Below, piece by piece: positions 4,823 to 8,723 of a stretch of DNA of 30,071 nucleotides (the first letter of the stretch is position 1; each line of letters starts with the position of its first letter). The stretch is from positions 1 through 30,071 of the forward strand of contig JAWXCN010000070.1 of assembly GCA_034408725.1 (NCBI GenBank), given 5' to 3'. The position numbers and the translations under genes are program-made. A model generated the notes under the pieces. It had not been told where the DNA came from. It made no database searches and was given only the letters and a program-made list of their open reading frames with translations. The stretch is from Candidatus Hydrogenedentota bacterium. Its GTDB lineage: Bacteria > Hydrogenedentota > Hydrogenedentia > Hydrogenedentales > SLHB01.

Positions 4823-5126
4823 CCGGTCCATCTCCCTTGAGTAATACTGATTCGCCACAAGATCGCAATATTGTACTCTCAGTTGCGCCCACGGCATCAA
4901 GTTGCGCATCTGCCCCGGGCAACATCGAACAAAGGGTGCCTGAAGACGCCACGCTTCTGGCCGCAATTATTGAATTACGCATTACAGACAGTATTCTGCT
5001 TTTTACGCATAGCGTTTAGAATCAATGAGTTACGATAAATCCGCGAATCAATTTGCTTTTTAGCCAAGAATTTTCAATTCCGCCAAAAATAACCACCCGA
5101 AACCCTCCAAATTCCATAAAAAGTGG

Positions 5127-5155
5127 AAGACAACGCCCCCTCATTATGGTATGCT
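5127..5155 (+). promoter_or_regulatory. Putative sigma70 promoter (AAGACA, 17 bp spacer, extended -10 TGgTATGCT)
   Basis: -35-like AAGACA at 5127-5132, TG at 5147-5148, TATGCT at 5150-5155. The predicted start near 5162 coincides with the first hairpin of the structured element. Confidence 0.5.
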
Positions 5156-5161
5156 GCCCTT

Positions 5162-5438
5162 TGCCTCCCTGGAGGCATTTGAACAGTTTAAGCCGTCGGG
5201 GCAGGCGGCCTGCCGCATCTAGTCCTCGCGTTTTGTCGTTGAGATGGCGTTCATCCGAACGGTGCTTTGCCATTCCACTGTTCGGGTGTGGTGCAGCGTC
5301 CTCAACCCGGTTTCGGGCAACGGCGAAATGCGAATGATCGGATACTCAGTGCGGGTGACCGTGACTGCCGTCTTGTACGCCTCCTACGCGTTTCCTCCTT
5401 TCGGAGACGGTAATGGCAGGTTCGCCCCCCGACGCTTA
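5162..5438 (+). ncRNA. Candidate structured non-coding RNA of unrecognised family
   Basis: Nested helices: 5162-5167/5172-5177; a ~24 bp closing stem 5189-5215/5414-5438; 16 bp 5226-5241/5318-5333; 13 bp 5252-5264/5276-5288; 5306-5309/5314-5317; GUGA tetraloop hairpin 5350-5363; 5366-5373/5405-5412. Nearly all non-Watson-Crick pairs in these helices are G-U on the + strand. Confidence 0.7.
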
Positions 5439-5517
5439 TGATAATTTTCCCTCCCGGTTTCATCGCGACGCCGTTTCCCGCTTTACAGTTTTACGCGTAG
5501 CGTGCAATGATGCTTCC

Positions 5518-7149
5518 ATGCCAACCCACCTGCGATCAGTAATCGTTTGCTTTATCGCGGTGTCATCTCTCGCCGAGACGCTGTATAACGGCATCGAGTT
5601 GCCGGCACAGTGGCCACCCGTGGATCGCGCTCCCACGCGCGAACCTATGCCGGTACCCTATCTGAAGAACCCACCGCCAATTATTCCGATTGACACGGGG
5701 CGGCAACTCTTCGTCGACGACTTTCTCATCGAAGCTACGGATCTCAAGCGGACATTCCACGCGGCGGCCTACTATCCCGGGAACCCGGTGATGGCGCCGG
5801 ACAGCGAATGGGAGAATGGCGAGTCGAAGGGATTTCCCGCGCACACGGCGATGGTGTTCAGCGATGGCGCATGGTTCGACCCGCAAGACCAGTTGTTCAA
5901 GATGTGGTACATGGGCGGGTATACCAAATCGACATGTTACGCGGAATCAAAAGACGGCATTCGATGGACCAAACCTGCGCTGGACATCGTCCCCGGTACG
6001 AACATCGTTCAAACGGACCAGCGCGATTCCTCGATCATCTGGCTGGATTTGGAAGAAAAGGACCCGCAACGCCGGTATAAAATGTTTTTCTACAGACGTC
6101 CGCAGGATGACGGCACGTACTCGATCTATTTTTCTGCCGACGGCAAACACTGGGGCGAGCCGTTGGGCAAGTCTGGCCCGACGGGTGATCGCACGACGGT
6201 GTTTTACAATCCGTTTCGAAAGGTATGGGTCTTCAATGTTCGTGGTTACACACCGGAGGTAGGACGTTTCAGGGAATACCACGAAGGACCCGACGTCATG
6301 TCCGCGGCAAATTGGAAGCCCGGCGAGTCTACATTCTGGATCGGCGCGGACACGCTGGACCCGATGCGCGAAGACCTCAAGACTCGCTGTGAATTGTATA
6401 ACCTCGATTGCGTCGCGTACGAAAGCGTGATGCTCGGTCTCTTTTCCATCTGGCGTGGGCAACCCGAAGACCGCGCGAAACCGAACGAGATTTGCGTCGG
6501 ATTCAGTCGCGACGGGTTCCATTGGGATCGGCCCAGCCGCGCGCCGTTCATCCCGGTGTCAGAGAATTACGGCGACTGGAATTGGGGCAACGTGCAATCC
6601 GCCGGCGGCTGCTGTCTCGTCGTTGGCGACAAGCTGTACTTCTACGTCAGCGGCCGGAAAGGCGTGAAGGGATCGACGTCATCGGGTGTGTGCAGCACCG
6701 GTCTTGCCACGCTACGGCGCGACGGGTTCGCGTCGATGGATGCCCTGGGAACCGAGGGCACGCTCACGACACGTCCGGTGAAGTTCACCGGCAAACATCT
6801 TTTTGTCAATGCCGACGCGTCACAGGGCGAAATCCGCGTCGAGATTCTACCCGTGTACTTCCTCGGAGGAAGGTTAGTCATACAACCAGGACAGGAGACG
6901 GCCATCACCGGGTTTGATGCCGCGTCCTGTGTCCCCGTTACAAAAGATTCGACGCGCGCCGGTGTGACCTGGAAATCCGGGGAAGACCTCTCCTCCTTGG
7001 TGGACCAACCGGTCCAGTTCCGATTTCACATCAAGAATGCCCGCCTGTACTCATTCTGGGTCAGCCCCGGCGATTCCGGGGCGAGCAACGGCTTCGTCGC
7101 CGCGGGAGGGCCGGGATTCATGGGCAACATTGATCGAGGCGAGGAATAA
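5518..7149 (+). CDS. Secreted five-bladed beta-propeller glycoside hydrolase-like protein (GH32/GH43 clan-like)
   Basis: Signal peptide MPTHLRSVIVCFIAVSSLA, RQLFVDDFLI, FKMWY, YAESKDGIRW, FSRDGFHWDR, LATLRRDGFASM, and a C-terminal beta-sandwich. The start position is approximate. Confidence 0.75.
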   Translation: MPTHLRSVIVCFIAVSSLAETLYNGIELPAQWPPVDRAPTREPMPVPYLKNPPPIIPIDTGRQLFVDDFLIEATDLKRTFHAAAYYPGNPVMAPDSEWENGESKGFPAHTAMVFSDGAWFDPQDQLFKMWYMGGYTKSTCYAESKDGIRWTKPALDIVPGTNIVQTDQRDSSIIWLDLEEKDPQRRYKMFFYRRPQDDGTYSIYFSADGKHWGEPLGKSGPTGDRTTVFYNPFRKVWVFNVRGYTPEVGRFREYHEGPDVMSAANWKPGESTFWIGADTLDPMREDLKTRCELYNLDCVAYESVMLGLFSIWRGQPEDRAKPNEICVGFSRDGFHWDRPSRAPFIPVSENYGDWNWGNVQSAGGCCLVVGDKLYFYVSGRKGVKGSTSSGVCSTGLATLRRDGFASMDALGTEGTLTTRPVKFTGKHLFVNADASQGEIRVEILPVYFLGGRLVIQPGQETAITGFDAASCVPVTKDSTRAGVTWKSGEDLSSLVDQPVQFRFHIKNARLYSFWVSPGDSGASNGFVAAGGPGFMGNIDRGEE

Positions 7150-7355: not shown

Positions 7356-7424
7356 ACAATCAAGTCTTGTACTGATACTGCGCGCGCCATCCGCCGGCCT
7401 TGAAGTTTTCGAGCTTCATTTGCG

Positions 7425-8621
7425 CTACGTCAACACTTTGCAGATCGCATCGCAGAGCGCATCCATGTTCCCCGGCGTCATCCCCGCAACGTTGATGCGG
7501 CCCGAGCCGACAATGTAGACACCGTACTTTTCCTTGAGCGTGTCAACGTGCGCTTTATTCAAGCCGGAGAAGGAAAACATTCCCTTCTGCGTGGTGAGGA
7601 ACGAAAAGTCTTGTGCGACGCCCTTGGCCTTGAGCGTGTTTACAAACGCCTGGCGCATGCCGGCGATGCGGTCGCGCATTCCCTTTACTTCGCCGTCCCA
7701 CTCCTTGCGCAACGCGGCGTCGTTCAAGATAGTTGTTACGATGTTCGACCCGTGCGCGGGCGGGTTCGAGTAGTTCGTGCGAATCGTCCGCTTGAGGTGG
7801 CTGAGCGCTTTCTGCGCGCTGGATTCAGAATCGGCGACGAGCGTGAGCGCGCCGACGCGTTCGTTGTATAACCCGAAGTTTTTCGAGAACGACGAGCATA
7901 TATATACTTCGAGGCCGCCGGCGAGAAACTGTGACAAACCGCGCGCGTCTTCGCGCACGCCGTCAGCGAGGCCCTGATACGCGAAATCGAATAGCGGCGC
8001 CCAGCCTTGCTTCGCGGCGACCTCCGCGATCGCGTTCCACTCGTTCACTGTCGGGTCCATGCCCGTCGGGTTGTGGCAGCAACCGTGCAGCACGACGAAA
8101 TCGCCCGCGGGCACTTTTTTCAAAGCTTCGAGCATCGGCATGAAATCGAGCTTCCTGCTTCCGGCGTCGTAATACGGATAGTTGGCGACGTTCAGACCCG
8201 ACGCCTGGAAAATGCCAGGATGGTTCGGCCACGTCGGGTCGCTTAGCCACACCGTCGCGCCCGGCTTGAGAAAAGATATGAAATCGCCGGACACGCGCAG
8301 CGCGCCGGTGCCGCCCGGCGTGTGCGCGGTGACGCTCCTTTTGCTCGCGAGAATTTCGTGGCCGCCGCCGAAAAGGAGTTCCTGAACAGCCGCGCAATAC
8401 TCGGCTGTACCGCTGTTTGGATTCACATAGTTCTTCGTCTTTTCCGATGCGAGGATGCGTTCCTCCGCCTTCTTCACGGATTTGAGCACCGGCGTCTTGC
8501 CGTTCTCGTCGCAATAGACCCCAATGCTGAGATTGATCTTGTTCGGGTTTGGGTCTTTTTTAAACGCCTCGCCAATGCCTAGGATGGGGTCAGGCGGCGC
8601 CGTTTCGAGCTGCTCAAACAT
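7425..8621 (-). CDS. aspC: Aspartate/aromatic amino acid aminotransferase (class I PLP)
   Basis: APPDPILG, TPGGTGAL, PTWPNH, HGCCHNPTG, DFAYQG, SFSKNFGLYNERVG (PLP lysine), GRINVAG. Start could also be 8630. Confidence 0.95.
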   Translation of the reverse strand: MFEQLETAPPDPILGIGEAFKKDPNPNKINLSIGVYCDENGKTPVLKSVKKAEERILASEKTKNYVNPNSGTAEYCAAVQELLFGGGHEILASKRSVTAHTPGGTGALRVSGDFISFLKPGATVWLSDPTWPNHPGIFQASGLNVANYPYYDAGSRKLDFMPMLEALKKVPAGDFVVLHGCCHNPTGMDPTVNEWNAIAEVAAKQGWAPLFDFAYQGLADGVREDARGLSQFLAGGLEVYICSSFSKNFGLYNERVGALTLVADSESSAQKALSHLKRTIRTNYSNPPAHGSNIVTTILNDAALRKEWDGEVKGMRDRIAGMRQAFVNTLKAKGVAQDFSFLTTQKGMFSFSGLNKAHVDTLKEKYGVYIVGSGRINVAGMTPGNMDALCDAICKVLT

Positions 8622-8723
8622 GATGATCATTTGCTCCGTGAGGATTGCGTTTGGCGCAGCAGTATAGTCGCGCGCCCTTCGCGCTTCCAACGGATAGGAA
8701 AAACCACAAAAAAGGCGAAGCAG

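Follow-up and report, generated by a model that had tools for sequence, protein, structure and literature searches.

Introduction

Among described RNAs, the closest in mechanism to the one reported here are the anti-Shine-Dalgarno small RNAs (sRNAs) of the Alphaproteobacteria. The alpha-r14 and alpha-r15 sRNAs (NfeR1, AbcR-type; 'cuckoo' RNAs) are described as trans-encoded (PMC10746234); they have their own promoters, and carry an ultraconserved anti-Shine-Dalgarno motif that is unpaired in several hairpins and is predicted to pair with the starts of messenger RNAs (mRNAs). The subject of this paper is a structured RNA encoded on the plus strand, at positions 5162-5438, of a 30,071-nt stretch of DNA from a Candidatus Hydrogenedentota bacterium (contig JAWXCN010000070.1, assembly GCA_034408725.1; hereafter "the window"). 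The alphaproteobacterial sRNAs are described as consisting of three hairpins, each bearing CCUCCUCCC (PMC10746234), whereas the present RNA is 277 nt long and contains CCUCC(U) twice. It also has a long closing stem and a covarying multi-helix arm, and it occurs in Hydrogenedentota. The Rfam models of alpha-r14 and alpha-r15 have no match over its body.

Also close in mechanism are Staphylococcus aureus RNAIII and the RsaE/RoxS-type sRNAs, large or multi-hairpin regulators whose C-rich hairpin loops pair with the Shine-Dalgarno regions of several mRNAs; RNAIII is in addition closed by long-range helices and encodes a peptide. The present RNA has no sequence or model likeness to RNAIII or RsaE, comes from a different phylum, and is without a conserved open reading frame (ORF). 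6S RNA (RF00013), an abundant RNA of the housekeeping type, resembles it in being a structured non-coding RNA (ncRNA) of a few hundred nucleotides with its own promoter, a putative one in the present case; however, 6S RNA is a rod with a central bubble, whereas the present RNA is branched and has no RF00013 match. The present RNA belongs to no described family. It defines a new family supported by covariation, with a fold that is unusually elaborate for an anti-Shine-Dalgarno regulator.

The Hydrogenedentota have no cultured, genetically studied member. A search of the full-text literature, with subscription journals outside its scope, turned up nothing published about ncRNAs or other structured RNAs from these bacteria, and the papers that it returned on anti-Shine-Dalgarno sRNAs with CCUCC concerned other phyla only. 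Within that scope, the family described here is the first covariation-supported RNA family for the Hydrogenedentota, with a conserved promoter-like element and a defined architecture. The candidate pairing that we propose for it is concrete and joins a seed in the sRNA to the leader of a lipoprotein gene. In size and degree of structure the RNA goes well beyond the usual anti-Shine-Dalgarno sRNA; it partly matches the tail of 16S ribosomal RNA, and it may show a coupling of a complex fold to ribosome-binding control. The covariance model built from its homologues (R1) can be used for annotating the RNA in metagenomes and metatranscriptomes.

A single-copy RNA gene in four genera

The element is very probably a real, new, and independently transcribed RNA gene. 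Full-length homologues are present, in one copy each, in 14 of 135 Hydrogenedentota species genomes, which belong to four genera of one family (f1) and include the genome that contains the window (G000; 5.17 Mb, 280 contigs, 92% complete). A BLAST search against 60 related genomes recovered the whole element in all four genomes of the same genus (72-83% identity) and its most conserved blocks in four genomes of other genera. Of the order's 133 genomes, 14, with G000 among them, each have a single occurrence of a 21-nt core, GCGTTTCCTCCTTTYGGAGAC (positions 5388-5408, with Y at 5402); the 21-mer of positions 5388-5408 is exact in 13 of the 14 copies and has one mismatch in the 14th. The carriers of the core are G000 and the other four of four genomes in its genus (g1), all six genomes of g6, two of the three of g9, and the single genome of g17. 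The core was absent from all 79 genomes of the 12 other families of the order, and a reversed control pattern had no match in the genomes of the order.

The covariance model R1 was built from the 14 sequences and has 281 positions and 59 pairs. Whether run on the 133 genomes of the order or on the 135 of the phylum, it returns these same 14 carriers, with 213.5 bits at 5162-5438 and 119.9-283.7 bits in the 13 other genomes. In the homologue alignment, conservation drops outside both ends of the RNA. The initial annotation of the locus had named multiple genomic copies as a sign of a miniature inverted-repeat transposable element (MITE). The RNA was instead found once per genome in all 14 carriers; besides the one full-length copy, G000 gave five matches of only 15-42 nt, with E values of at least 1.4.

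When one genome per species of bacteria and archaea was scanned, 13 stretches were returned, and 11 of these were the same Hydrogenedentota sequences. The other two, unrelated records from Lachnospiraceae and Rhodospirillales, were rejected as chance matches that have only the 21-mer in common with the RNA. A scan of metagenomes gave five stretches, including one with a core identical to that of the window and one identical to G003; contigs L075, L077, and L078 share the 21-mer alone and were likewise set aside as chance matches. Seven weak R1 matches in other genera (19.2-26.4 bits; L094-L100) were judged spurious: only the 5' hairpin and the closing stem are common to them and the RNA, and in six cases the entire match falls within an open frame of at least 340 aa. 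These seven sites share a hairpin followed by GCCG.CGGG.(C)AGGCG, like the 5' end of the RNA.

Covariation and family-wide architecture

The homologues differ from one another in ways that preserve base pairing. In the R1-guided alignment, which is fitted to the model and somewhat favors structure, 90.3% of the cells pair, compared to 34.5-44.9% in controls with the 3' partners shifted by 1-3 columns; double changes occur in 25 of the 59 consensus pairs, compared to 6-11 in the slid controls, and the covariation score was reached by none of 500 shuffles. The same compensatory pairs were already visible in earlier alignments made with MAFFT only. The covariation is strongest in the long arm, where 19 of the 26 pairs of helices 3-6 are doubly changed (6/7 in helices 3-4, 6/8 in helix 5, and 7/11 in helix 6), and it supports the closing stem as well. 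In this stem, P1 (helix 2), 91.6% of the cells are paired and 3 of the 12 pairs are doubly changed. The 5' hairpin, P0, has double changes in three of its eight model pairs; it is present in 13 of the 14 minimum free energy (MFE) folds, the g17 copy being the exception, and its sequence differs in most genera (GAAUGUAG / CUGCGUUC).

The order of elements in the family consensus is P0, a conserved single-stranded joiner, P1, the long arm (P2-P6), and a short 3' arm. P2 is a long-range helix with 90.5% of its cells paired (34-54% in the slid controls), and one of its pairs is doubly changed in seven sequences; imposing P2 on the G000 fold carries a cost of 5.3 kcal/mol. P2 has two competitors in that fold, the GUGA hairpin and the inner 7 bp of the closing stem, which are specific to the genus. 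A GUGA loop appears in 3 of the 14 MFE folds, and its hairpin is 79% paired and shows no covariation. In the long arm, the loop GCCAUUC and the bulge GGUGCA are both conserved and predicted to be accessible (mean unpaired probability, 0.8-0.99). Pseudoknots were considered and rejected; the conserved runs of complementary columns are all short and invariant, for example the P0-loop GAGG against CCUC.

Eight of the 14 homologues were compared on both strands (60 shuffles each). For seven of the eight, the plus strand folds with z values of -2.6 to -4.7 and does better than the minus strand, for which z is 0 to -3.0. The exception is the copy from g17; as trimmed by R1 it is without its 3' closing strand, and it gave no fold signal on either strand.

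Fold of the RNA in the source genome

The MFE of positions 5162-5438 on the plus strand is -127.6 kcal/mol, against -101.6 +/- 4.9 kcal/mol in 200 dinucleotide shuffles (z = -5.32), and none of the 200 was as good. On the minus strand z is -2.32, and one of 200 shuffles folded equally well. The initial annotation, made from the bare sequence, had described nearly the whole interval as nested helices, and the G000 fold recovers all the helices that it named. The closing stem of about 24 bp comes out as four segments of 5, 7, 5, and 7 bp (24 bp in all; 5189-5215/5414-5438), the continuous 16-bp helix and the 13-bp helix under its loop are both found (P3 and P5 in Table 1), and the at least eight G-U pairs become 13. 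Two features needed revision. The stem around the pyrimidine-rich domain exists with 7 bp (5368-5374/5404-5410), not 8; the GUGA hairpin is part of the G000 fold (5351-5354/5359-5362) and is limited to part of one genus. The coordinates of all features are collected in Table 1.

Table 1. Elements of the RNA and of its promoter region, in coordinates of the window
Feature	Position	Strand	Remarks
Promoter-like element	5118-5155	+	pattern in 14/14 homologues; putative function
A-tract	5118-5122	+	upstream A-tract in 13/14 copies
-35-like AAGACA	5127-5132	+	promoter-like element
Spacer, 17 nt, ending TGG	TGG 5147-5149	+	promoter-like element
-10-like TATGCT	5150-5155	+	extended -10
RNA as modelled, 277 nt	5162-5438	+	5' end placed from promoter; 3' end placed at end of closing stem, uncertain
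P0, 5' hairpin (UGCCUC / GAGGCA)	5162-5177	+	G000 fold
P1 closing stem, 5' strand	5189-5208	+	pairs with 5422-5438; fold and covariation
P1 closing stem, 3' strand	5422-5438	+	fold and covariation
P2, 5' strand CCGCAU	5213-5218	+	pairs with GUGCGG 5349-5354; family-wide long-range helix
Long arm	5226-5333	+	P3-P6; G000 fold and covariation
P3	5226-5241 / 5318-5333	+	part of long arm
P4	5246-5251 / 5295-5300	+	part of long arm
P5	5252-5264 / 5276-5288	+	capped by loop CUUUGCCAUUC, 5265-5275
Bulge UGGUGC, 6 nt	5289-5294	+	long arm; conserved
P6 side hairpin	5306-5309 / 5314-5317	+	long arm; sequence differs in each genus
GUGA-tetraloop hairpin	5347-5367	+	G000 MFE; doubtful; overlaps 3' strand of P2
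3' domain (3' arm)	5366-5412	+	enclosing stem CCGUCUU / GAGACGG
Hairpin A, ACGC / GCGU, loop CUCCUAC	loop 5381-5387; CCUCC 5380-5384	+	3' domain
Hairpin B region with CCUCC	5394-5398	+	3' domain
CCUCCUUUC	5394-5402	+	matches 16S 3' tail
GCGUUUCCUCCUUU	5388-5401	+	candidate seed

Promoter-like element, coding potential, and expression

All 14 copies are preceded by the pattern RAGAC[AT], 17 nt ending in TGn, and TAnnnT, and the first hairpin follows 5-7 nt downstream. An extended -10 promoter that sets the start of the RNA at its first hairpin had been proposed from the window alone, and the pattern is kept in every homologue. A generic promoter scan of the window listed two other sites and not the AAGACA/TATGCT site, which scores 8 of 12 where 9 are needed. 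No reading frame or peptide is conserved among the copies, whose longest frames differ in strand and in frame; this agrees with the initial view that the interval holds no convincing protein ORF. That view's central claim, an undescribed ncRNA with its own promoter, is supported by the absence of an Rfam match at cut-off, the single copy, the covariation, and the presence in RNA libraries of contigs from close relatives.

A few sampled words of the stretch are contained in 17 sequencing runs from 13 studies, and 15 of these runs are recorded as RNA. Four runs, from four studies, were aligned; they yielded five contigs of 153-206 nt, all from close relatives and all inside 5176-5405. Four of the five are about 88-94% identical over most of their length and the fifth aligns over its last 30 nt; the unaligned contig ends are also RNA-like sequence. 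Two findings count against an independent transcription unit. The contigs are silent on the ends, strand, and level of the transcript, and carry-over of DNA into the libraries is possible; in addition, no consistent intrinsic terminator follows the closing stem. A hairpin follows the RNA in some g6 copies, and a U-run is present in G004 only. The contigs from RNA libraries are a hint of expression only. The flanks (4950-5175 and 5406-5650) had no RNA-library contig at 80% likeness, which carries little weight since their conservation is lower than that of the RNA. A shared stop at 5403-5405, in the invariant block, is seen in three contigs from two studies; it is probably a branching of the assembly graph at the edge of that block, and not an end of the RNA.

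The 3' arm and the proposed mode of action

No other part of the RNA comes close to the 3' arm in conservation. Over 46 nt the arm is 94-96% identical to that of genus g6, and the same 94-96% is found between genera whose overall identity is near 60%. The two CCUCC sequences of the arm lie in or beside predicted hairpin loops, which should be accessible: loop A has a mean unpaired probability of 0.65-0.8, and loop B one of 0.75-0.99. The 3' end of the 16S ribosomal RNA of G000 is GGAUCACCUCCUUUCU, and the second CCUCC belongs to a segment that repeats 9 nt of this anti-Shine-Dalgarno tail. G000 clearly uses Shine-Dalgarno sites heavily: GGAG, GAGG, or AGGA is found at -12 in 322 of 3456 crude gene starts, compared to a background of about 27 per position.

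We propose that the conserved, sigma-70-like extended -10 promoter would start transcription of a stand-alone RNA gene of about 277 nt, whose product would fold into a 5' hairpin and a long closing stem followed by two arms, a long covarying one and a short, near-invariant 3' one. The RNA would act in trans, with the CCUCC arm pairing with the Shine-Dalgarno and spacer region of particular mRNAs; this pairing would block 30S binding and repress translation. Pairing with ribosome-binding sites is suggested by analogy with sRNAs that have anti-Shine-Dalgarno seeds, among them alpha-r14, RNAIII, and RsaE. We regard it as an even call whether the RNA is a base-pairing regulator acting through its CCUCC arm. 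The best candidate target would be the first lipoprotein-like gene of an array on contig C246 of G000.

A lipoprotein leader as candidate target

Exact complements of positions 5374-5406 were looked for in the whole G000 genome. The longest perfect complement is 14 nt, AAAGGAGGAAACGC, at C246:6818-6831, and ends 2 nt before an ATG; it forms a ribosome-binding region that is perfectly complementary to RNA positions 5388-5401. The gene that follows (C246:6834-7241) encodes 135 aa with a signal peptide and a lipobox-like LAVGC, has no Pfam family, and is the first in a tandem array of lipoprotein-like paralogues. This lipoprotein-like family has members of about 130-150 aa, arranged in arrays of 1-6 paralogues and present in six genera of the bacterial family only. 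Examples of arrays are C246:6834-7241 with 7418-7813 (L139, L150), and also L101, L104, and L107. A strongly conserved start region is found only in the first gene of each array.

The potential for pairing with this one candidate persists in each of the four genera. Of the 14 RNA-bearing genomes, eight contain an exact copy of the 18-mer AAGGAGGAAACGCACATG and two more contain it with one G-U-compatible change; no exact copy exists in the 119 genomes that lack the RNA. The g9 orthologue keeps 15 bp with a one-base bulge; the g17 orthologue has 11 contiguous Watson-Crick base pairs, and its duplex fold draws 15 pairs. In all four genera, the RNA-leader duplexes (11-15 bp) have predicted energies of -22.6 to -25.4 kcal/mol, compared to -12.0 to -15.6 kcal/mol for the 16S tail on the same leaders. 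Between g1 and g6, 26 of 28 leader positions within -35 to -1 are identical, whereas identity is 39-48% over the remaining leader and about 50% over the first 135 bases of the coding sequence. In the aminotransferase gene, the one control gene to which leader conservation was compared, the same window has 7-15 of 35 identical positions and the coding start is 67-78% identical. The lipoprotein family is present in 15 of 54 genomes of the bacterial family, and 12 of the 15 carry the RNA. On these sequence comparisons, the lipoprotein mRNA is a tentative direct target, one that we hold more in doubt than in belief.

Several findings weigh against this target and against a base-pairing regulator in general. 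Chance alone should give a genome as large as this one about 0.8 perfect 14-nt complements; the single 14-mer match is at about chance level, and it is the conservation of the site, found afterward, that goes beyond chance. The next-best complements, two 13-mers that pair with loop A, lie outside start regions and were rejected as targets, one on C202 that falls after a stop codon and before a terminator-like hairpin and one on C259 inside an ORF. A duplex-energy scan of 3456 start regions showed no enrichment (mean -24.5, compared to -25.4 in internal windows), with crude gene calls (first ATG of ORFs of at least 150 aa) that miss small genes. The co-distribution of the RNA and the lipoprotein family is confounded by common descent. 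Genomes G027, G034, and G121 carry the lipoprotein family and have no detectable RNA; the search gave only matches of at most 22 bits in these genomes, which are 76-91% complete and in 710-920 contigs. Conversely, the RNA-bearing genomes G117 and G118 are without a match to the protein, although in G117 the 18-mer is present and lies at the edge of a contig. Seed pairing also leaves unexplained GUAGGGUGCA, which is part of the conserved island of the leader. On the side of the RNA, a covarying multi-helix molecule of 277 nt far exceeds the needs of a 14-nt seed. Because the helices of the 3' arm (8-10) never vary, covariation cannot confirm the fold of this arm, which is given by energy. Its GGAGACGG can pair with CCGUCUU or with CGUUUCC, and the two pairings are mutually exclusive; in the MFE folds of the 14 copies, the loop CUCCUAC is formed in nine and the loop UCCUUUY in six, with both in one copy.

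A second contact between loop A and GUAGGGUGC in the leader was considered and rejected: it is topologically awkward beside the seed helix and is lost in G000, G001, G002, and G003. The leader has a further likeness to the RNA. The bulge of the long arm with its following base (UGGUGCA, 5289-5295) is similar to a GGGUGCA that lies shortly before the Shine-Dalgarno site of the lipoprotein leader (leaders L102, L103, L105, and L156). In g17, the bulge word and the leader word are both GGGAC, the same word and not complements of each other. The shared word might point to a common binding partner, although it is a single case.

Alternative roles for the RNA

A serious alternative, if a less likely one, is that the RNA works via a protein or the ribosome, as a scaffold, a sequestering decoy, or a catalytic RNA, and not by pairing with mRNA. 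The 3' arm, the GCCAUUC loop, and the UGGUGC bulge would then be protein or tertiary contacts, a detail to which we give the same weight. The size and covarying multi-helix build of the molecule, beyond what a seed-bearing sRNA needs, speak for such a role, and the invariance of the whole 3' arm, stems included, suits recognition of sequence and shape. The accessible and conserved GCCAUUC and GGUGCA have no proposed mRNA partner, and the GGUGCA-like word of the target leader, with its parallel change in g17, fits a shared contact as well. However, the change in g17 is one case only, the RNA has no protein gene as a constant neighbor (the adjacent genes vary between genera), and it has no likeness to any protein-binding Rfam family. 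A protein- or ribosome-bound RNA would also leave the CCUCC loops and the conserved complementary start region unexplained.

A further scheme would make the RNA either a switch acting in trans or a mimic of the 16S tail, and not a plain sRNA. It is unlikely, in our judgment, that the long arm senses a ligand, a protein, or temperature; that such a signal toggles the 3' arm between its exclusive pairings, exposing or hiding the two anti-Shine-Dalgarno sequences, is no likelier, and the same low probability applies to the exposed sequences competing with the 16S tail of the ribosome for ribosome-binding sites. If true, this would be a structured RNA that governs translation initiation in trans, comparable to 6S RNA and transcription.

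The boldest reading, which also seems improbable to us, is that the RNA is abundant and mimics the 16S 3' tail in general, competing for Shine-Dalgarno sites across the transcriptome; equally improbable is a variant in which it sequesters a factor that recognizes the 16S tail. Either way, the RNA would be to translation what 6S RNA is to transcription. The two CCUCC sequences, one of them within a 9-nt identity to the organism's own 16S tail, would fit a mimic, as would the heavy use of Shine-Dalgarno sites in G000. That contigs turn up in soil and sediment metatranscriptomes, where these organisms are rare, hints at abundance; the contigs themselves, however, give no level of abundance. CCUCC plus a U-run is short and common in sRNA seeds, and the sequence before CCUCC is GCG UUU in the RNA versus CA in the 16S tail. 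The RNA is also confined to four genera, whereas a general regulator of translation would be expected to be more widespread.

Genomic context

The gene upstream of the RNA is divergently oriented, and in 8 of the 14 loci it resembles that for the ribonucleotide reductase small chain. Downstream, a convergent class I/II aminotransferase gene is found in 10 of the 14 loci, and in 10 of the 11 loci other than G000, G001, and G002 it lies directly after the RNA. Only in these three genomes is the RNA followed directly by a same-strand gene, whose product, about 540 aa long and secreted, matches no Pfam family. In G000 this gene occupies 5518-7149 and is followed by the aminotransferase gene on the minus strand (7425-8690).

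The initial annotation had left open a large leader RNA, and a cis-acting leader or riboswitch of the gene at 5518-7149 is very improbable. It has in its favor the same-strand gene of G000, G001, and G002, and an ATG at 5413 in G000 that is preceded by GGAG and is in frame with the downstream gene. Nevertheless, 10 of the 14 loci have an opposite-strand gene next and only three have a same-strand one, which argues that the RNA is its own transcription unit and not a leader; the ATG is missing from the other 13 copies, sequence is not conserved past 5438, and no riboswitch family matches. In detail, GGAG (5403-5406) is separated by 6 nt from the ATG at 5413, which opens in frame with the downstream 543-aa ORF, whose signal peptide starts from 5518. 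We take this ATG to be a coincidence, given its absence from the other 13 copies. Read-through from the promoter of the RNA into the downstream gene is possible in G000.

Comparison with known RNA families

Three further readings can be dismissed, namely a divergent form of a universal RNA, a repeat or MITE, and a chance fold of a palindrome in the DNA. The size range overlaps that of the universal RNAs, yet all four of these are found elsewhere in G000 above their Rfam cut-offs, and the single copy, the unequal folding of the two strands, and the compensatory changes speak against a repeat or palindrome. The models used were RF00013 (6S) and RF00010, RF00023, and RF00169 (RNase P, transfer-messenger RNA [tmRNA], and signal recognition particle [SRP] RNA). 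The 6S gene, which settles the divergent 6S RNA that the initial annotation had kept as an option, lies at C106:714-896 (82.1 bits); RNase P RNA is on C142 (319.9 bits), tmRNA on C79 (197.6 bits), and SRP RNA on C247 (55.2 bits). ARAGORN found no tmRNA and no transfer RNA in the window.

The Rfam search suggested at the outset gave no match at the gathering cut-off for any of the 4227 models of Rfam 15 in the whole window. At E values up to 10, four weak matches were returned between 4900 and 5600, none over the body of the RNA. Only two of them touch the ends of the RNA. One is to Tombus_5 on the minus strand (5049-5180; 15.9 bits, cut-off 43). The other is a sub-threshold match to ar15 at 5427-5492 (21.2 bits, cut-off 40; E = 0.062). 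Its site, which is not conserved in other genomes, is a hairpin with a CCCUCCC loop that lies mostly downstream of the RNA.

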